Source: Escherichia coli (GTDB taxonomy: Bacteria; Pseudomonadota; Gammaproteobacteria; Enterobacterales; Enterobacteriaceae). From it: DNA of 64,000 nucleotides. A program made the translations under genes and the position numbers. Under the pieces are notes generated by a model that saw only the letters and a program-made list of their open reading frames with translations, was not told the DNA's origin and did no database searches. Below, piece by piece: positions 32,419-42,350 of this stretch. Where the stretch lies: NCBI RefSeq assembly GCF_024700885.2, contig NZ_CP117016.1; one strand, written 5' to 3'. Position 1 is the first letter of the stretch. Every line of letters starts with the position of its first letter.

Positions 32419-33963
32419 TTACGCTTTTGCCTTCGGCATCTGCGAAACCAGTGACAGGCTGACGTCCATACCTTCTACCTGGAAATGCGGTACGGCGTAG
32501 AGTTTCACGCGGAAGAATCCCGGATTGTCTTCGATATCTTCCACCACCACTTTTCCGTCACGCAGCGGATGCGAGGCCTGCAGTTCATCACCCGGATCGG
32601 TCATCTCCGTCACCAGTCCCCGGATCCAGTTATTCAGCTCCAGCTCAAGCAGACGGCGATCTTTGGTGGTACCGATATTTTCCCGCTGAATGATCTTCAG
32701 GTAATGCGCAATACGGGACAGCAGGAAGATATAGGGAAGACGGGCATTAATACGACTGTTCGCCGTTGCATCCGGCGTATCGTACAGCGCCGGTTTCTGG
32801 GCGGAGTTAGCAGAGAAGAAGCAGGCATAATCCCGGTTCTTGTAGTAAGAGAGCGGAATAAAGCCCAGATTCGCGAATTCAAACTCCCGCGTTTCCGGGA
32901 TCATCACCTCTGACGGAATTTTGACCTGATTACCGGTTCCCAGATCATACAAATGGATTGGCAAATCCTGCACCGCACCACCGGCCTGAGGCCCACGGAT
33001 CTGAACACACCAGCCGTTGGTGACAAAACTGCGCACCATGTTGGCTGCAAAGGCAAAAGACGCGTTCGTCCAGAGATATTTATGGTGGTCCGGTCCTTTC
33101 ACCTCTTCAACATAGTTAAAGCTGCGGACAGGTACGGTATCCGGGCCATACGGCAGGCGTCCCAGTACACGGGGCATCACCAGGCCAATATAGCGGGCAT
33201 CGTCCGTCTCACGGAAAGCATTCCACTTGATGTACTCGGCACGCTCAAAGTGGTTGCCAATATCCTTGATGGCAGCCACCTCTTCCATGGTTTCTTTCTG
33301 GAAGAACGCCGGGCCAACTGAACCAATAAACGGCATATGTGCAGATGCCGCCACCCGGGAAATATTTTTCAGCAACGCCACGTCCTGTGCAGATGCATCA
33401 AACTCCCAGGCTGAAACCAGGGCGGCAATGGGCTCACCACCCGGCGTGTCATACTCAGCCACATAGGTCTGCAGATAAAGGCCGCTCTGAATAATTTCCG
33501 GCGCATCCTCAAAATCCTGACGCAGATCGTCTTTGGACAGATCCAGCAGCTCAATTTTCACATTACGGCGGAAGTCCGTTTTATCCACCAGGGACTTCAC
33601 GCCCCGCCACAGCGACTCCACTTTCTGAAATTCCGGATGATGAAGCACAGCATCCAGTTGACGGCTGATCTGATAATCAAGCTCTGCAATATGATGGTCA
33701 ATCAGCGCTTTATCGAGTTTTTCCACCTGCGTGCCGGCTTTTGCCAGACACTCCATAAACACCTGCATCCCTGCCGTCAGACGTTCATCTGCAGATGCTT
33801 CTGACATGGCCTGTGGATCCTGCCAGATATCCAGTGCACTCAGGGCAGATACCGGACTCAGGTTAATTTTTTCAAACAGGGAAGCATATACGCTGTCGCC
33901 GGCATGCGCTTCAGATACCACGCTCTCTGCAACGTTCTTTTCTTTCTGTACAGACATCAGCAT
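32419..33963 (-). CDS. tssC: T6SS sheath large subunit TssC (VipB)
   Basis: 514-aa ORF with typical TssC size and position after tssB. Confidence 0.85.
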   Translation of the reverse strand: MLMSVQKEKNVAESVVSEAHAGDSVYASLFEKINLSPVSALSALDIWQDPQAMSEASADERLTAGMQVFMECLAKAGTQVEKLDKALIDHHIAELDYQISRQLDAVLHHPEFQKVESLWRGVKSLVDKTDFRRNVKIELLDLSKDDLRQDFEDAPEIIQSGLYLQTYVAEYDTPGGEPIAALVSAWEFDASAQDVALLKNISRVAASAHMPFIGSVGPAFFQKETMEEVAAIKDIGNHFERAEYIKWNAFRETDDARYIGLVMPRVLGRLPYGPDTVPVRSFNYVEEVKGPDHHKYLWTNASFAFAANMVRSFVTNGWCVQIRGPQAGGAVQDLPIHLYDLGTGNQVKIPSEVMIPETREFEFANLGFIPLSYYKNRDYACFFSANSAQKPALYDTPDATANSRINARLPYIFLLSRIAHYLKIIQRENIGTTKDRRLLELELNNWIRGLVTEMTDPGDELQASHPLRDGKVVVEDIEDNPGFFRVKLYAVPHFQVEGMDVSLSLVSQMPKAKA

Positions 33964-33984
33964 TTTCTCTCGTAATCCGTTAAA

Positions 33985-34482
33985 TCACGCCTTTTCCGGC
34001 ACCAGTGCACGCAGTTCATCACGCAGCGTCTGACTCAGTGCCGGGTCACGCAGAATTTTTTCCAGCTCTTTACGGAAAGTCACGTTATCCAGCAGATTGG
34101 CTTTCAGGTCCCGCAGAAGGCTACGCATGGCCAGCATGGCTTTAAGACGGGGAATCTGTCGGGCGACCTGCTCTGGCGTGAAATCGTTCATATTGCGGAA
34201 AGTCAGGCTGATGCTCTCTTCAGAGCCATCACCGGCAAGCGTGTTCTCCACATTCAGATGTACAGACGGGGAGATATCTGCCAGAACATCATTAAAATTG
34301 TTTTTATTAATATCCGTTTTTACACGCTCTGACAGTGGACGCTCTTCCTGTCCGTTACTGAAATCACCGGCAACCAGAAGTTTGAGCGGAAGCTCCACTT
34401 TCTTCTGCCCACCACCCGTATGTAGGTCTAATTTCAGATTTACCCTTGCTTTCGGGATTTCATTCTGAAACGAACTGCTCAT
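33985..34482 (-). CDS. tssB: T6SS sheath small subunit TssB (VipA)
   Basis: From internal Met: MSSSFQNEIPKARVNLKLDLHTGGGQKKVELPLKLLVAGDF..., VipA-like; first gene of the minus-strand operon. Confidence 0.8.
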   Translation of the reverse strand: MSSSFQNEIPKARVNLKLDLHTGGGQKKVELPLKLLVAGDFSNGQEERPLSERVKTDINKNNFNDVLADISPSVHLNVENTLAGDGSEESISLTFRNMNDFTPEQVARQIPRLKAMLAMRSLLRDLKANLLDNVTFRKELEKILRDPALSQTLRDELRALVPEKA

Positions 34483-34506
34483 GGCTCTCTCCTGTGAAAC
34501 CTGCAT

Positions 34507-34988
34507 CTAAGGGGTTCCATCACCGCAGATGCCTCCCCTTGTGCACTGATTTAATTTTGATCATTATAGGACGAAGATCTGAAAAATCTCAATATGACAG
34601 ATACATCGATCGATATAACGCAAATAATCAGGACTTTATTCTATGGAATGTCGCAAAATAATGAATATTCAAAGCTTATAACCATTGTTAATGTAAAAAT
34701 ACAGAAAATTATTCCACAAAACACTTTTGATACAGCCAGTTAACATAAACACTGTATTTTCTTGATTTCAGTCATTGAAAATCACAATGAGTAAAGTTTC
34801 AGCAGCATTGACGTGATTTCTGGAAAGCGGGAAAGATATGGAGGAAGGGCCCAACAAAATGCAATGAAAGAAGGAGTGAGGGGATTTCTAGTAAAAACAG
34901 AAGATTAACAAAACACATCAGGAGGCAGAGACTCCTGATTCAGTGCTACCACATGAAAATTTAGTTAACTGTTACCGTTCTGAAATCT
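34507..34988 (-). promoter_or_regulatory. AT-rich control region upstream of tssB (T6SS promoter region), divergent from a small plus-strand ORF
   Basis: ~480 bp without ORFs, very AT-rich, directly upstream of the first T6SS gene; no specific promoter elements assigned. Confidence 0.4.
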
Positions 34989-35180
34989 ATGTCAGAAGAT
35001 ATTCCATTACCGAAAATCAATCAGCGATACAGAGACGATCATGGTGCGCTTGTCACCGTGACCAGTGTTGAGGAAACCCGGGTGGTGTTTATGCGGGACG
35101 GCTATCCGCATCCCTGCATGCGACCGATGTACAACTTCCTGGGAAAATTCAAACCCGAACCCCGGGAAGAAACAGAATAA
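34989..35180 (+). CDS. hypothetical small protein (63 aa)
   Basis: ORF track only; no recognisable motif; weak ribosome-binding site. Confidence 0.3.
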   Translation: MSEDIPLPKINQRYRDDHGALVTVTSVEETRVVFMRDGYPHPCMRPMYNFLGKFKPEPREETE

Positions 35181-35232
35181 AACGAAATCCCTGCCGGCAA
35201 TCACATTGCCTGATGGCAGCATAATCCACTTA

Positions 35233-35466
35233 TTAATTCTCATCCCCGGAGACAAGCCCTGAAAACCACTCCGGGTGTTCACTGTATGCTGTGTTCAGCG
35301 CATCCCAGGAAACGTTGATATAAAAGCTGTCCTGCAATTTCCGGGTAACCACCTCTGCCAGGCGGTTCCGGTTACCCACCAGTCCGGCATAACCTCTCTC
35401 TGCCAGCCACTCATTCAGTTCATGTTCCAGAGACAGATTGATAATATCGTAATCGGACCTTGCCAT
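35233..35466 (-). CDS. hypothetical small protein (~77 aa from internal Met MARSDYD)
   Basis: ORF track 35233..35541; likely start at internal ATG. Confidence 0.3.
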   Translation of the reverse strand: MARSDYDIINLSLEHELNEWLAERGYAGLVGNRNRLAEVVTRKLQDSFYINVSWDALNTAYSEHPEWFSGLVSGDEN

Positions 35467-35561
35467 TCCCGTTTCCTTAGCACATGTTTTCAGGCACGGG
35501 GATAAAGTATAAAGAATGTCGTACTGCTGCTGCCAGAGCAATATTCCCCCTGATGGTTGTA

Positions 35562-36221
35562 TCAGAGATGGTATGCCGGTACTTTGCGGGTTGTTCCTGT
35601 CAGGTTATCGTGCACCTCCACGGTCGTGGTCACCACCGGCATTCCGGCCTTTCTCAGCCTCAGAACATCAGCCGCAATACGCTGACTGCCAAACCAGAAC
35701 AGGCCGTCCAGTGCAGTCACCAGTAAACCCGCCTCCAGTGCATACTTCAGCCGTTCACGGGGCGCTTTCACTTCCCGGGCAACCTGCTGATATGGCAATG
35801 ATGTGTTTTCATTCCCAACCACGCGACGAATACGATGAGACAGATGATACCGGAATGTATCCGGCACACCAGAAAGGCTGGCCTTCAGGCTGTACACGCA
35901 GCCAAACCGTTTATCGTTAAACACCACATTTTTCTGGCTGATTCCCCATTCTTCACGCAGCGCAGCAATCAGTTGTGGTGTACGGGTAAGCAACAAGCGA
36001 AAAGGCAGTTCAAAACTGGTGACGTAATCCACATTCAGCAGTGCAATACGCAGCCGTTCTTCTGGCCCGGCCTCTGTCTGCCGGCACTCCTCCAGAACAT
36101 CCTGCCACTGCTGGCGAAGACGGGGCGATTCGTTCCGTTCTGTAAAACAGTATTTATCCGCCAGATAGTCAATTTGTGTACGCATACTGAAGAGCATTCC
36201 GTATAAAGATTCAGCTGACAA
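35562..36221 (-). CDS. hypothetical protein, 219 aa (prophage-like)
   Basis: ORF track; no motif recognised. Confidence 0.4.
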   Translation of the reverse strand: MSAESLYGMLFSMRTQIDYLADKYCFTERNESPRLRQQWQDVLEECRQTEAGPEERLRIALLNVDYVTSFELPFRLLLTRTPQLIAALREEWGISQKNVVFNDKRFGCVYSLKASLSGVPDTFRYHLSHRIRRVVGNENTSLPYQQVAREVKAPRERLKYALEAGLLVTALDGLFWFGSQRIAADVLRLRKAGMPVVTTTVEVHDNLTGTTRKVPAYHL

Positions 36222-36493
36222 AACTTTATCAGTCCATAAGAATCAACGGAAGCACCGATGGTTCACCTGGTCATCACCAAGTTTTGCCATAACCGGTAGC
36301 AATGATCATTCTGTGTAACTATTTGCCCGCAGATGATGATGTTTATCGATGTCTCCCCTGTCTGAATGTCGCATAAAGAGGATCATCAGCAGACACAGCC
36401 AGTGAGCCACCGTCCGCGGAACAAAGCGCCGGACCACATCCGGATCCGGCAGGGGCATGACTGGCATGATCAAGTAATTATGTCGCATCTCCC

Positions 36494-36967
36494 TCACTCC
36501 TGGTCCCGGAGCAAATCTGGCTGGTATCTGTAAACATACTTCGTACATGCCGCTCTGCAATAAATCCCCGTGCCACAGGCTTCACAGAACTTTTTCCCGG
36601 AAAAATGCTGCCCGCACATCACACAATGCCACTCCAGCACGACAGGTAATGGCGATAAAAACATCGCCATATCATCAATGTAAGGATGGGATTTTTCCGG
36701 ATTCAGCACCACGCAGGCCGCCTTCTGTTGCGCGCTCAGGGCATGTAAATCGTGCTCAAACCACGCCCCCTGAGCATCTGTCTGCAAAATCAACCGGCCA
36801 CGACAGGAAAGACAGAAACAATGCCGGATATTTCTGCTGAGCGCAGAATCGGCACTGATAATGTGCTCACCCGGCGTGATCCCAGCCCCGTTTTTATACC
36901 GTTCATTCTGCAACCACCTCCTCACTGAAGCGCCCTGTATGACAGTGTGTGCAGTACTGCTCCCCAT
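36494..36967 (-). CDS. Cys-rich zinc-ribbon-like protein, module copy 2 (start uncertain; may be fused to upstream ORF by frameshift)
   Basis: Contains CxxC...WFEH...WHCxxC...CxxC arrangement paralleling the upstream ORF; 5' end overlaps upstream ORF in another frame. Confidence 0.35.
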   Translation of the reverse strand: MGSSTAHTVIQGASVRRWLQNERYKNGAGITPGEHIISADSALSRNIRHCFCLSCRGRLILQTDAQGAWFEHDLHALSAQQKAACVVLNPEKSHPYIDDMAMFLSPLPVVLEWHCVMCGQHFSGKKFCEACGTGIYCRAACTKYVYRYQPDLLRDQE

Positions 36968-37292
36968 AATAATCGTGGTGACATTGTCTGCAGTGCCAGC
37001 TGGCTTTACGCACTACGGGTAAGGCGTTCGGTACGAATTGCCGTAAGCGTTTAATCAACAGTATTTCTCTGCGCTCCGGTCTGACATAAGGGCACTCATG
37101 ACCATGCTCAGTCAGCCCGTCGTCAGTGTGTTCAAACCAGGGACGTTCAGTGTCGTATTGCGGGTGGTATCTGAGAGCACTGCCACAGAGGTGGCAGGTG
37201 TAACGATCGTATGGCGCTGTCTGTGCGGTACGGGCGCCGGTCAGACGTCCGTTGCCATCAAGTGCGAGAAAGGATTTTGCGTACATCGTCAT
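36903..37292 (-). CDS. Cys-rich zinc-ribbon-like protein, module copy 1 (129 aa)
   Basis: TCHLCGSALRY...PWFEHTDD...WHCRQCHHDYYGEQYCTHC motif pairs. Confidence 0.4.
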   Translation of the reverse strand: MTMYAKSFLALDGNGRLTGARTAQTAPYDRYTCHLCGSALRYHPQYDTERPWFEHTDDGLTEHGHECPYVRPERREILLIKRLRQFVPNALPVVRKASWHCRQCHHDYYGEQYCTHCHTGRFSEEVVAE

Positions 37293-37453
37293 ATTCCTCA
37301 GCCGCCAGACGACACGCAGGCAACAGCCGTCCCGGTACGGGCAGCGTGGTCAGGGTGTGAATGGCGGTTTTCAGTTCAGTCTCAGAAGGGAAAATCAGTG
37401 TGGTCGCTGTGAACACGTCATCACACTAAGGTCAGATAAGTCGTCTGTCGGGC

Positions 37454-38098
37454 TCAGCCACGACTGCAGCCAAAGTTGCGCTCACCGGTGCCGTAAGCTT
37501 TGGTACTCTCCTTCGCCAGATAGTCAGCACGCTCCAGCACCTGCTGAAAGCCGGTGTCATCATCGCGTTCCAGCCACACCGCCGGCCTGACCGGAAAATG
37601 CGCCAGCGTGGTATGATCTCCGGTATCCACTCCCAGGGCACTGCACCACGCCTGTTTAATCATCCCGGCCAGTGATCCCGGAGCGCGGTAATCGCCGGCA
37701 CGACACCAGGTATCCCGGTTGACCAGCAGCATCAGGTGATAGTGTTTTTTACCTTTGCACTCCCCAAACTCCCGGGCCCAGACGTAATGCAGGGTTGTGG
37801 GATGCACGCGTTTGCCTTCACGGCGCTTACGCTTCTGATAAGCATCGATTCGGGCTTTCAGGGCATTGATGAAGCGGGATATCACTGCTGCGTCAGTTGC
37901 TGCCGGTACATCCGGGAGACGCAGGTCAATCCGCAATGCCGTCAGACGGGGATGAACATCCAGTGCGCGCAGCACCGTCTCACGGATACGTTGTTGCCAG
38001 AAGGGGTTGTATTTGTAGGTCATGGTTAAATCTCCGTATGGTTCATACGGAATAGCCACGTCGTAAAAAATGCGCAGAGTCCCTGAAGTGACCTCCAA
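37454..38098 (-). CDS. prophage protein, possibly inovirus Gp2 / YagK-YfjJ family
   Basis: ORF track; ...RLTALRIDLRLPD... segment resembles the YagK/YfjJ family from memory; start may be internal Met (MTYKYNPF). Confidence 0.35.
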   Translation of the reverse strand: MEVTSGTLRIFYDVAIPYEPYGDLTMTYKYNPFWQQRIRETVLRALDVHPRLTALRIDLRLPDVPAATDAAVISRFINALKARIDAYQKRKRREGKRVHPTTLHYVWAREFGECKGKKHYHLMLLVNRDTWCRAGDYRAPGSLAGMIKQAWCSALGVDTGDHTTLAHFPVRPAVWLERDDDTGFQQVLERADYLAKESTKAYGTGERNFGCSRG

Positions 38099-38218
38099 CC
38101 GGGCAATATCTCAGGCACTCTGTGATAACCCGATTGTCGTCTCCGGACTGACGGTTGAATTTTCAGCGTTGTTTTTTTAATGTAAAAAACCGGTTACGGG
38201 TAAGGCTGTGAGGAGGGA

Positions 38219-38422
38219 GTGATGGTGATACGCAAAAAGAAGTGCAGGGACTGTGGAAACGCGATTACTCATAATACTGTGTATTGCCCGTATTGTGGTT
38301 CTGTCGACCCCTTCGGCTATTACCGGAATACAGACCGTATCGTTACCATACTGCTGGCACTGATTATTGTGGTCCTGCTGACTACTGTCAGCGTCAGTGT
38401 GTATATACTGTGTAGCTGGTGA
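38219..38422 (+). CDS. small zinc-ribbon membrane protein (67 aa)
   Basis: Strong SD (GAGGAGGG) upstream; CRDCGN...YCPYCGS zinc ribbon followed by one TM helix (IVTILLALIIVVLLTTVSVSVYIL). Confidence 0.5.
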   Translation: MMVIRKKKCRDCGNAITHNTVYCPYCGSVDPFGYYRNTDRIVTILLALIIVVLLTTVSVSVYILCSW

Positions 38423-39648
38423 GATAACGGTTCATGTATCCCCTGAGCTGACAGTGTACCGGTTATATTAAGCGTAACCGACAGGTTCTCCTTCATACCA
38501 TATTAAATTTTTCCAGGTATTGCCGCTGCCTTATTTCGTCCCATACAGGAAAACTCGTCTGGGTTTCTGACAAATACGTGAAACTCACAGCCCCTCAATA
38601 TCAACCACACGCTGTAAGCCGGTAATACCTGAAAATCAGCCTATTACCGCCCACGCCTCCGGCACTATTCCCTTTTGATTTCGAATTCTTTGTTGTCGCT
38701 ATACCGTGTAACATCACCGATACCACACACCGGCACAGATAACACCGGACTTATCGTAGCGCTGCTTCAATATTCAGGTGACATATTTCCAGACGGAAGC
38801 CGGCACGCGATCGTAAAATTTGCGGTCAGTTCTGCCAGCCGGTTGTCAACGGCAGAGTTAAAGGCTTCCAGCTCCGCAAGGGTAAGTTTATAACGCGTGT
38901 GGGAATTCACTTTTCCCGCGTCTCCTGACGTATTACGGGCTGCCACTTACCTGGTGTCCCGCAATACAGCCTTAGTGTTCCGTTATCGGGGATCCGGACG
39001 CACCGCAACAACCGGGGAAGTATTTCTGGTTAGAGCTGTGTCAAGAGGGATTTCTCAGCCCCTCACTCACCGGCTCAGTTTCAGGGCAGGAGCATTAATA
39101 CGCTCAGTTCATGTCTTATACAGGAATGGGCATAGGGGGAGCTGGCGTGTCACTGCTGATTTTACGCATCAGCGTTCATGTATTTGCACTCTGATACAGA
39201 ATGCTTCACAGCGCTCTGTTACCGGAGAGATTTACTCTCTTAGGTTATTCTGGCAAATCCTTTACGTTACTCTCTGATAACTTCTTATATTTATAATACC
39301 AATCAGACAGCCTTATCCCACCAGTGATACCTGTCCCGGCCCACAAGGCACGGGCTGCCCCACCGTAACTGCCCCGTAAATAACTCTGCAATTATCAGAA
39401 CGCCAGTTTTCCCCTCTTCCTCACGAAAATCATCCCTTCTTTATCGCGCGCGCGTGCGGAAGCATCGTTTCGTAACAACCACCCGGCATACCGGTACGGC
39501 TCAGCCACCGTAACCTCCCCGTTTATCTCCTGGCGGTCACATTCCCGATTATTTTTTACGTTTCTCCCCGGTTGTTATGCCGGTGAAGGTGGTGCGTTGT
39601 TTTCATGACCACACCGGCTGGTTTAACAACATCCGGAGGAACATTCTC

Positions 39649-39855
39649 ATGATCACCCCAGTTTCACTGATGGATGACCAGATGGTCGACATGGCATTTA
39701 TCACTCAACTGACCGGCCTGACCGATAAGTGGTTTTACAAACTCATCAAGGATGGTGACTTTCCTGCGCCCATCAAAATGGGCCGCAGCTCCCGATGGCT
39801 GAAAAGCGAAGTGGAAGCCTGGCTGCAGGCGCGTATTGCACAGTCCCGTCCGTAA
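39649..39855 (+). CDS. alpA: AlpA-family prophage transcriptional regulator
   Basis: From internal Met: MITPVSLMDDQMVDMAFITQLTGLTDKWFYKLIKDGDFPAPIKMGRSSRWLKSEVEAWLQARI, AlpA-type HTH pattern. Confidence 0.65.
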   Translation: MITPVSLMDDQMVDMAFITQLTGLTDKWFYKLIKDGDFPAPIKMGRSSRWLKSEVEAWLQARIAQSRP

Positions 39856-39936
39856 TTCTTAACCGTTCATCTGCAACAGACGCAGTCTCCGGCCTGCCGG
39901 CGGCGTTCTGCTGCCTGTTATCCCCCGTGAGGAATA

Positions 39937-40544
39937 TGAAAATGAAACCACAGTATCAGACCCGTTACGAGCTGCTCCACGAAAGCTACCAGAAATGGCT
40001 GACCGGCTTCACCCGGCACGCCGTATCCTGGGGCGTGTGTCATCCGAATATCTACTACTTCCATAATCTGACGCCCGGGTGGGTGTCATTCAATGGTGAA
40101 AAACCGGAGATTGCCATCGTACCCCAGAGTCTGCACCGGCTGATTTATGGTCCGGACAAACGGACCACGCCGCCCCTGGATGATGATCTGATAGTGAATT
40201 TATGCACCAGTGAACATCTGCTGGTTCATCATCCGATGCTGGAAGGCATTCTCCTGTCTGAATGTGAACGTCTGAGGCAGCGTTCGCTGGCAAATAAACT
40301 GATCAGCCTCTTCCGTCAGTTTGGTGGCACGGAGTTGCGCCTCAAACTGGTCTGGCTTTGCTGGCTTGATTTAATGACCGGAAACTGCCTTGACGACTGG
40401 ACGGAGAATCTGAAACGGAAATCAGAAAAAGAGCTGGAGGAATGGATCATCAACCGTCAGAAGCAGAGCGCAGCACTGACGGATCTGATGGATCAGTACG
40501 TGCTCCTGGCATACCGCACAACGGTTGACGATAAGCGCACCTGA
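39937..40544 (+). CDS. hypothetical prophage protein (~202 aa)
   Basis: ORF track 39795..40544; likely start MKMKPQYQ preceded by GAGGAA. Confidence 0.4.
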
Positions 40545-40865
40545 TGCCAGTTGTTTCAGGGAAGCTGGTATCCGGGCAGGGTGCCAGGGCTGACTGAACG
40601 GCCTGTCTGTCTGCCGTTTCGCTCTCCGTGCGTTCTGTCACACGCTGCACCTGAACGCCGGACTGCGGGCACGCAGACAGGAAAGTCGCAGGCTGGAACT
40701 TCTGACCGGCGGGTATCAGTTATATGCCTGTTGATTCATCACCACCACGCAGCTCCTGAGCTTTAGTTCATCACCGATATTCATACATCTGAATATCGGT
40801 GATGAAATCCCCATAATAATCAATCATCTAAGTCTGAAGCATAATGGAGAAAAACTGCTCACCGG

Positions 40866-42350
40866 TTACTTCGCTCTCAGCTTATTGTAGTGATAACCCG
40901 AGGTAAAAATACCAGAGACATCAGACAACTTTAAACTGGCTATCTGGGGAAGCAGAACATACATGGTTTTTCCTTCCGGCACGACAGAAAGCCTGAACTG
41001 AGATTCAAGAATGTTCAGCAATGCGTTCAGTTTTTTCCTGTTTCTGAACCGACCCGGGCCACACTGGAGAATATAATTTTTCCTGACACGGGGTGGGCAT
41101 TCTCCGCGGCACTCCTCAATGAGCCAGTCGAACAGCTCCTCGGCGTCCTTCTGCTGCAGTTCAGATTCATCAGGTAACGCAAATAATTTTTTATATTCAT
41201 CTGTGTACCACGAACTTATTACGACAGCAGACGTCATGATATCGGCAGAGATTTTCCCTTCACCATAGTTGAAATACTGAAATAACGCTGCAATTCTTGC
41301 AATGTTTTCTGTTTTTTTTGAAACATGTCCCCGAAACGGGCTTAAGGGTCCGGAAGGGGATAAATCCTGCTCCAGAACATTATAGTGCTCAATAAATATT
41401 TTTTGCGCTTCAGGCGAAAAATGCAGACAATACCGTTCATCCTCACTGGATTTTTCAATACTGCCTCTGGCCAGTTCCATTAATCGTTCATGAAATGCCG
41501 TTAATGATCCTCCCGGAATCACAGCTCCGTTAATAAAGCGTTTCCCCTGCGTGGTTGCAGGTTTACTGATAAGACAACGGGCAAGAAAACCACTGTCCCT
41601 GGCAACAGAACCTTTTCGCTCCATATATCGGTCAAAAAGACCGGGTTGCACCATGAGGGATAACGTCATTCTGGCATTTTCAATCATCTGTTCGGGTTCA
41701 TTCTTTCTGTCCACAGACAATACAGAGCCATCCCACATTTTGTTAATAAAAGGCAACTCAGACAGGGTATATCCATCAAATATAATACCGGCTTCATCTG
41801 ACATAATACCCACTGAACGCCATTTACCATAAAGCTGATTCTTAATTGCCGCAGTCGTGGCATCATTAAAAATGAATTTATACCTCACAGGTTCTTCCGC
41901 ACTGTTTTTCTGAAGTACTTCCAGTTGTCTGAGGGTTTCTGACTCATCCGCGCCTTTGCGGAGTTCTTTATTCAGTTTTGACAACAATGCTTTTTTCTGA
42001 GCCTTTAAAAGCTCTTCCTTGTTTTTCCAGACAGCCAGTTCACTTTTGTATCTGGAATATAACTGCATCTCCTGCTGGTACAGGGGCTTCATTAATAATT
42101 TGTCCACTGCGGTTTTTCGTTCTCCGGACTCGGCAAGCGTCAGGAAAAAAAGAGAGACCGGCCCCCGCAGTGTATTCAGTCTGCAGACATCAATCAGATT
42201 CTGGCAGACAAGTGAAACAGCGCCCAGGGCAGACGCTGCCACAAGCCCAAGGGGAGCCTGCGTAATTTGCTGAGCTTCAATAACGGCATCACGAATGAGT
42301 GGAGGCAGCGAACTCAGGGGAAACTCATCACAAGGCTGACCGAATGACAT
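40866..42350 (-). CDS. hypothetical prophage protein, possibly DUF3987 (YfjI-like)
   Basis: ORF track 40866..42419; likely start MSFGQPCDEF; family assignment from memory only. Confidence 0.4.
   Translation of the reverse strand: MSFGQPCDEFPLSSLPPLIRDAVIEAQQITQAPLGLVAASALGAVSLVCQNLIDVCRLNTLRGPVSLFFLTLAESGERKTAVDKLLMKPLYQQEMQLYSRYKSELAVWKNKEELLKAQKKALLSKLNKELRKGADESETLRQLEVLQKNSAEEPVRYKFIFNDATTAAIKNQLYGKWRSVGIMSDEAGIIFDGYTLSELPFINKMWDGSVLSVDRKNEPEQMIENARMTLSLMVQPGLFDRYMERKGSVARDSGFLARCLISKPATTQGKRFINGAVIPGGSLTAFHERLMELARGSIEKSSEDERYCLHFSPEAQKIFIEHYNVLEQDLSPSGPLSPFRGHVSKKTENIARIAALFQYFNYGEGKISADIMTSAVVISSWYTDEYKKLFALPDESELQQKDAEELFDWLIEECRGECPPRVRKNYILQCGPGRFRNRKKLNALLNILESQFRLSVVPEGKTMYVLLPQIASLKLSDVSGIFTSGYHYNKLRAK

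Follow-up and report, generated by a model that had tools for sequence, protein, structure and literature searches.

A tandem pair of paralogous genes for small zinc-ribbon proteins lies on the minus strand of the window, by which is meant the whole 64-kb stretch of Escherichia coli DNA that was analysed. Gene 1 (36903..37286) is intact and encodes a protein of 127 aa, and gene 2 (36494..36906), which in its intact form encodes 137 aa, has lost a single G at codon 9 and is a frameshifted pseudogene. That there are two tandem paralogues, the second of them a pseudogene, can be taken as nearly certain, and the explanation as a whole, in which anatomy, pseudogene status and a reading of function are combined, is held at a probability of roughly 0.85. 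The genes, their family and the status of gene 2 are already known from RefSeq and Pfam; since RefSeq lists gene 1 and the frameshifted gene 2 in identical strains, little is gained for genome annotation.

Anatomy of the tandem gene pair

Two open reading frames on the minus strand, 36903..37292 (129 aa) and 36494..36967 (157 aa), overlap by 65 nt. Both contain the motifs CxxC, (P/A)WFEH, WHCxxC and CxxC in this order, a repetition that had been pointed out in the first-pass annotation and that is borne out by protein comparison: gene 1 and an intact gene 2 allele are 31% identical over 83 aa (BLASTP, E = 5e-10), and both match the same two Pfam families. DUF7828 (PF25165) is matched at 105.4 bits by gene 1 and at 73.6 bits by the downstream frame of gene 2 (cut-off 25.7), and Zn_ribbon_11 (PF11682, formerly DUF3279) at 34.8 and 59.9 bits, respectively (cut-off 24). 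Gene 1 belongs to these families without any difference, whereas gene 2 is here a frameshifted copy. The candidate metal ligands that are invariant in the family (C, C, H, C in one set and C, C, C, C in the other) are all present in gene 1 and in gene 2 after repair of its frame. No further copy of the family was found within the 64-kb window.

Gene 1 is annotated as 'putative zinc ribbon protein' in a RefSeq CDS of 384 nt, both in an identical strain and in strain 55989. An alternative start, ATG 37292, would give the 129-aa form. The sequence GAGGAA stands 7 nt upstream of ATG 37286 and only 1 nt from ATG 37292, and alignments of the family begin at MYAKSF. The start of gene 2 (36906-36904) shares an ATGA (36903..36906) with the stop codon of gene 1 (36905-36903), and an AGGAGG Shine-Dalgarno sequence (36917..36922) is located 10 nt before ATG 36906, inside the 3' end of gene 1; the longer GAGGAGG is invariant in six aligned loci. 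RefSeq describes gene 2, from 36906 to 36494 of the window, as 'putative zinc ribbon protein, frameshifted' in BEC1-S17 and 55989, and the same conclusion is reached by alignment to six intact alleles.

Translation from the native start of gene 2 runs through an ORF of 38 codons (36790..36906) to a premature stop, and only the first 8 residues of this ORF match the real protein. The 157-aa ORF (36494..36967) is the downstream frame of gene 2 read back into gene 1; the DUF7828 match begins at its residue 30, and its first ~29 residues are non-homologous to the family. The suspicion that this ORF has no convincing start of its own was well founded, in that no Shine-Dalgarno sequence precedes ATG 36967. 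A credible start is missing because the true start, ATG 36906, sits in a different frame. Among six alleles the dN/dS values of gene 1 are 0.06-0.28, or 0.06-0.16 when one near-identical pair is left out, and those of gene 2 among alleles are 0.05-0.34. Both genes are thus under purifying selection, and these low values identify them as genuine coding genes.

The overlap had also been read in the first-pass annotation as one gene of ~280 aa with an internal duplication, the two frames being joined across ~36905 by a single indel. A gene of ~265-280 aa, in which a duplicated Cys-rich module is split by an indel near 36905, would account for two overlapping ORFs with an identical order of motifs and for a long second ORF without a ribosome-binding site of its own. 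It is at odds with the related loci. Seven E. coli loci of 90-99% identity (L002-L006, L022 and L023) have intact CDSs of 127 aa and of 137 or 141 aa, and the 4-nt ATGA stop/start overlap is annotated in each of them. All seven intact loci (7/7) therefore encode two genes, each with its own start, which is the very arrangement that the first-pass annotation had set against its own proposal; the one-gene reading is refuted because related intact loci encode two separate genes with their own starts. The conserved GAGGAGG ahead of the second start argues in the same direction. A frameshift does exist, but its place is within gene 2: it affects codon 9, at a distance of 20-25 nt past the stop codon of gene 1, and leaves the two genes separate.

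Searches for a single homologue of ~280 aa agree with two genes, and no fused homologue of ~260-280 aa is found among the matches listed. A word-indexed search yielded 104 proteins, of 76-211 aa, none of them a fusion. When 1.84 billion protein cluster representatives were searched exhaustively with a profile, 261 proteins were obtained at E <= 0.001, and the best 150 of these 261 are mostly of 60-170 aa, the longest being of 238 aa. This longest protein (P0112) is composed of a truncated DUF7828 copy joined to a full copy, and to that extent it speaks for a fused gene; it is, however, itself preceded by another, separate copy of 129 aa, and no match exceeds 238 aa among those listed. A single split gene consequently retains hardly any credibility, and two tandem paralogues are the reading adopted below.

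The one-base deletion in gene 2

The frame of gene 2 is shifted at codon 9 by loss of one G from a run that reads GGG in the window (36881..36883, minus strand) and GGGG in six intact alleles. In a DNA alignment, the intact alleles begin with ATG AAC GGT ATA AAA ACG GGG and continue with CTG GGG ATC, where the window has CTG GGA TC. From this point the rest of gene 2 runs on in the -1 frame, which is open upstream to ATG 36967. A 66-nt query centred on the site finds the exact GGG 66-mer in 42 of 1801 complete E. coli genomes that have the stretch; all of the further matches listed (18/18) span 67 bases, that is, they have the extra G. The in-frame allele is accordingly that of ~98% of genomes.

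The closest intact counterpart is in strain STEC005 (L022 910-1323), where gene 2 is the same as in the window except for the extra G, the alignment containing a single gap and no other difference; the gene 1 sequences of the two differ at three positions. When one G is added to gene 2 of the window, its protein is identical to that of STEC005 (WP_032255455.1). Because gene 2 of STEC005 differs by the extra G alone, the deletion is very recent. In effect, STEC005 supplies a natural counterpart of gene 2 that is isogenic and intact.

A single-base difference in a run of G is a classic site of sequencing or assembly error, and gene 2 might on this account be intact in the organism. The run is, however, only 3-4 bases long, and the exact allele is shared by 42 complete genomes from many laboratories, including 55989, 042 and numerous O104:H4 strains. 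Since these 42 independent complete assemblies carry the exact allele, a homopolymer error is excluded for practical purposes, its likelihood being negligible.

The run could alternatively be a regulated switch, in which phase variation or programmed slippage of the ribosome or of RNA polymerase controls the expression of gene 2. Both GGG and GGGG alleles are found on otherwise identical sequence, gene 2 has acquired no further mutations, and the upstream AUA-AAA-AC would let the lysine tRNA slip by -1 and bring the frame back. Known contingency tracts are long homopolymers or short repeats, typically of 7 or more units, and a tract of 3-4 bases is far below them; gene 2 contains no long tract of the kind expected of a phase-variable locus, only G3 versus G4. 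Intact alleles, too, have the A5 run of codons 4-6, and slippage in them would do harm. Neither a stimulatory structure nor a slippery heptamer is evident, and no X-XXY-YYZ is seen in the sequence at the shift site, CUG-GGA-UCA. The shift is moreover not conserved across homologues as a programmed frameshift would be, the exact allele being confined to 42/1801 genomes and all 7/7 intact loci examined being in frame; the predominance of the in-frame allele (~98%) likewise tells against a switch, and the absence of further decay is equally explained by a recent deletion. A regulated switch is thus very improbable, and a recent inactivating deletion is preferred. An N-terminally altered product of gene 2 could still be made from in-frame ATG 36967, GTG 36925 or TTG 36913, all three of which lie in poor ribosome-binding contexts.

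Putative zinc-binding modules and remote likenesses

Nine residues are invariant in an alignment of 33 diverse members of the family. In the numbering of gene 1, five of them (C31, C34, F51, H53 and C65) belong to the N-terminal DUF7828 module and four (C99, C102, C112 and C115) to the C-terminal Zn_ribbon_11 module. We infer from this pattern that each module would bind one zinc ion, through a CCHC site and a CCCC site, respectively, so that a protein would hold two. An AlphaFold2 model (mean pLDDT 88.6) has a strand-rich N-terminal part, a long helix at 70-84 and a C-terminal beta ribbon. Proteins of the family are near-neutral (median pI 7.6), and this gives no support for general DNA binding. 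Structure searches gave no significant relative, and neither zinc-ribbon protein has a significant match in PADLOC, PHROGs or NCBIfam. Literature searches with DUF7828, DUF3279, Zn_ribbon_11, PF11682 and the protein accessions retrieved no paper or experiment.

The competence protein CoiA offers one remote likeness. The stretch of the family from CxxC to (W)FEH aligns to positions ~7-45 of CoiA_N (PF25164) in 12 of the 33 members, with a best E of 6.9e-5 among family members; the five matches inspected score 11.8-18.8 bits, all under the gathering score of 26.3 bits. Of the window proteins, gene 1 has no match to CoiA_N at E <= 5 and the gene 2 ORF has none at E <= 1. The PD-(D/E)XK nuclease domain of CoiA (PF06054) is absent from the family, which has a C-terminal zinc ribbon in its place: these proteins of 127-141 aa show no Pfam match to PF06054 and end after the zinc ribbon. 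Because of the sub-threshold scores and the absence of the nuclease domain, the likeness to CoiA is judged from these comparisons to be a resemblance, not membership.

Small zinc-binding proteins of P2/P4-type elements are also represented by Ogr/Delta, the zinc-finger activators of late genes in phages P2 and P4, and P4 Delta consists of an Ogr-like unit duplicated in tandem within one covalent chain. This duplication parallels the occurrence of single and tandem copies in the present family, by analogy only. The spacing of cysteines and the size differ between Ogr/Delta and the zinc-ribbon family, and the Ogr_Delta Pfam model has no match in the window proteins at E <= 1.

RPB9, a subunit of RNA polymerase II, consists of two zinc ribbons joined by a linker. 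A search of the PDB with the family profile yields an ungapped alignment of 77 residues to RPB9 (E = 0.007, which is marginal for a Cys-rich profile), in which the first and the C-terminal (third) CxxC of the family coincide with those of RPB9; the alignment covers the N-terminal ribbon and the linker only. The C-terminal ribbon of the family is much shorter than the TFIIS-type ribbon of RPB9/TFS. Fold searches are not significant, Foldseek ranking RPB9 at E ~3 with a probability of 0.02. With a marginal E of 0.007 and no support from fold searches, the likeness to RPB9 is probably a matter of chance or convergence.

Island setting and possible role

The pair resides in a CP4/P4-type genomic island of E. 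coli. The 1.2-kb region that contains it is 100% identical to E. coli BEC1-S17-ESBL-09 and MLI114 and 99.8% identical to 55989, 042 and many O104:H4 genomes, and the whole window is collinear with E. coli 55989. The pair stands between a Sci-1 type VI secretion cluster (from tssB to tssH, with tle1/tli1) and a block that comprises Ag43, RadC, CbeA/CbtA, a YeeP-like GTPase and an antirestriction gene. The otherwise identical strain BEC1-S17 carries an ISEc31 element between a DUF4222 gene and the ECs1377-family gene (L001 9909-11122, corresponding to ~35200 of the window) that is absent from the window and from 55989, and hha is a pseudogene in BEC1-S17 and intact in 55989.

On the minus strand, the order of genes is the inovirus Gp2 (YagK/YfjJ) gene, a 52-aa ORF, gene 1, gene 2, a 60-aa ORF and a gene for an ECs1377-family protein, so that the pair forms part of an operon-like array behind the Rep-like gene. 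The upstream YagK/YfjJ gene (37454..38023, 'inovirus Gp2 family', Rep-like) is a RefSeq CDS that matches PF11726 at 8.9e-48, and its ORF extends in the window to 38098; its match to REP_ORF2-G2P is sub-threshold (25.8 bits against a cut-off of 27.8, E 1.3e-5). The 52-aa hypothetical ORF (37258..37416, WP_000493525.1) shares 29 nt with the start of gene 1, and the 60-aa hypothetical ORF (36306..36488, WP_001216313.1) starts 5 nt past gene 2. These two ORFs, which tightly flank the pair, are without any family match. The downstream ECs1377-family protein (35562..36185) matches NCBIfam NF052300 at 1.6e-98 and, weakly and at its C-terminus, a winged-helix model (HTH_39, E 0.01); its homologue in STEC005 is annotated as 'DNA-binding protein'. 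It could belong to the same module as the zinc-ribbon pair. Within 33000-41000 no RNA family was detected with Rfam, and a scan for promoters and terminators gave counts at the level of shuffled controls.

The family is common in E. coli. At least part of a 1.2-kb cassette query is matched in 3782 of 5426 complete E. coli genomes (~69%), and the number of places per genome has a median of 2 and a maximum of 6. The named relatives that were looked up, in Escherichia, Klebsiella, Citrobacter, Enterobacter, Kluyvera, Lelliottia, Salmonella, Yersinia, Rahnella and Ewingella, all belong to Enterobacterales, and the family looks restricted to this order. A scan of genome contigs with over-specific patterns hit only two short contigs of the 'Collinsella sp.' MAG JAIJJM01 (L020 and L021), one of which encodes an E. 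coli-like copy of 86% identity; these contigs are most likely contamination of the bin by Enterobacteriaceae. A scan of 2.9 million viral contigs found 3 loci.

Copy number and make-up vary between loci. Single copies are found in L009, L010 and L014, tandem copies in E. coli and in the distant lineage L011, and L015 has two copies, each within a repeated unit of two genes. In other E. coli, as in an E. coli-like IMG/VR contig (L018 7570-8369), the place after gene 1 is taken by a third subtype (MRILNCYMAND...), which is 35% identical to gene 2, has an AGGAGG of its own and overlaps by 12 nt. Chimeric proteins such as P0095 combine the N-terminus of gene 1 with the C-terminus of gene 2. The occurrence of a third subtype and of chimeras shows that the tandem paralogues recombine and are swapped. 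Conserved residues have been lost from some in-frame alleles: WHC is changed to WHS in gene 2 of STEC434 (L002 1595-2008), and CTHC to CTHS together with W97R in gene 1 of UID2309220003 (L006 1215-1598), which suggests that in other strains, as well, the cassette decays sporadically.

About ten contexts were inspected, a handful of them outside E. coli, and each locus examined has a YagK/YfjJ-like or REP_ORF2-G2P-like gene no more than ~2.5 kb away. A gene for AlpA is usually nearby, and the zinc-ribbon gene is co-oriented with AlpA and YagK/YfjJ. In L011, the zinc-ribbon genes directly follow AlpA, and the sole YagK-like gene, which lies two genes upstream, is only distantly related. The zinc-ribbon gene adjoins variable cargo, such as KwaA and HsdR (L011), a WYL-regulated cluster (L009) and an SMC-like ATPase (L015). 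In the two distant loci L015 (5458-8459) and L010 (4438-6393), an unannotated family of proteins of 176-202 aa is encoded directly before the zinc-ribbon gene; the unit of this gene and the zinc-ribbon gene flanks the YagK/YfjJ gene on both sides in L015, and no similarity of the 176-202-aa family to YagK was found by BLAST. In K-12, the regions examined around yfjJ (CP4-57) and yagK (CP4-6) have no annotated copy of the family; in CP4-57 (L007 5548-10154), the anti-phage genes abpB/abpA come next after yfjJ on the opposite strand, in the place where the window has the zinc-ribbon pair downstream of its YfjJ-like gene. In phage-mobilised islands of Pseudomonas, Gp2-like proteins, an integrase and AlpA are regarded as likely core functions (bioRxiv 10.1101/2024.08.29.610337).

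Because the family is found near YagK/YfjJ and AlpA genes in every locus examined, the zinc-ribbon proteins may be accessory or regulatory partners of the Rep-like protein, an assignment drawn from gene neighbourhood that is tentative and somewhat on the unlikely side. The overlap of the gene 1 stop and the gene 2 start would lead to translational coupling, and the two co-translated paralogues may act together, perhaps as a heteromer. The pair would then provide zinc-stabilised accessory or regulatory partners to the YagK/YfjJ Rep-like protein, contributing by DNA recognition or by protein contacts to the processing, replication or regulation of island DNA. In the lineage of the window, the partner role would fall to gene 1 alone.

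The zinc-ribbon proteins might instead be island cargo that acts independently of YagK/YfjJ in phage defence, in anti-defence or in manipulation of the host. Their position at the border of variable cargo with defence genes among it (KwaA and HsdR in L011, the WYL cluster in L009), the anti-phage abpAB next after yfjJ in CP4-57 of K-12, the swapping and recombination of subtypes between loci and the loss of zinc ligands from some alleles are all consistent with cargo. On the other hand, neither PADLOC nor PHROGs gives a match, viral contigs yield only 3 loci in 2.9 million, and, in contrast to cargo, the genes keep their position and orientation with respect to YagK/YfjJ and AlpA in divergent lineages. 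A cargo role is unlikely, and partnership with the Rep-like protein is the reading followed here.

More specifically, a coupled heteromeric zinc protein could form, together with YagK/YfjJ, a control or DNA-recognition module of CP4/P4-type islands, a proposal that goes further and is distinctly improbable. If it is true, the heteromeric module might trigger replication or mobilisation of the island on phage infection, and lineages without subunit B (55989, O104:H4) would have an altered or immobilised island. The contribution of the window itself is a natural knockout allele of one paralogue only. The family to which it belongs is common and is part of an AlpA / YagK-YfjJ backbone that is conserved in islands with virulence and defence cargo, and its role, once known, could help to explain how such islands are regulated or mobilised.
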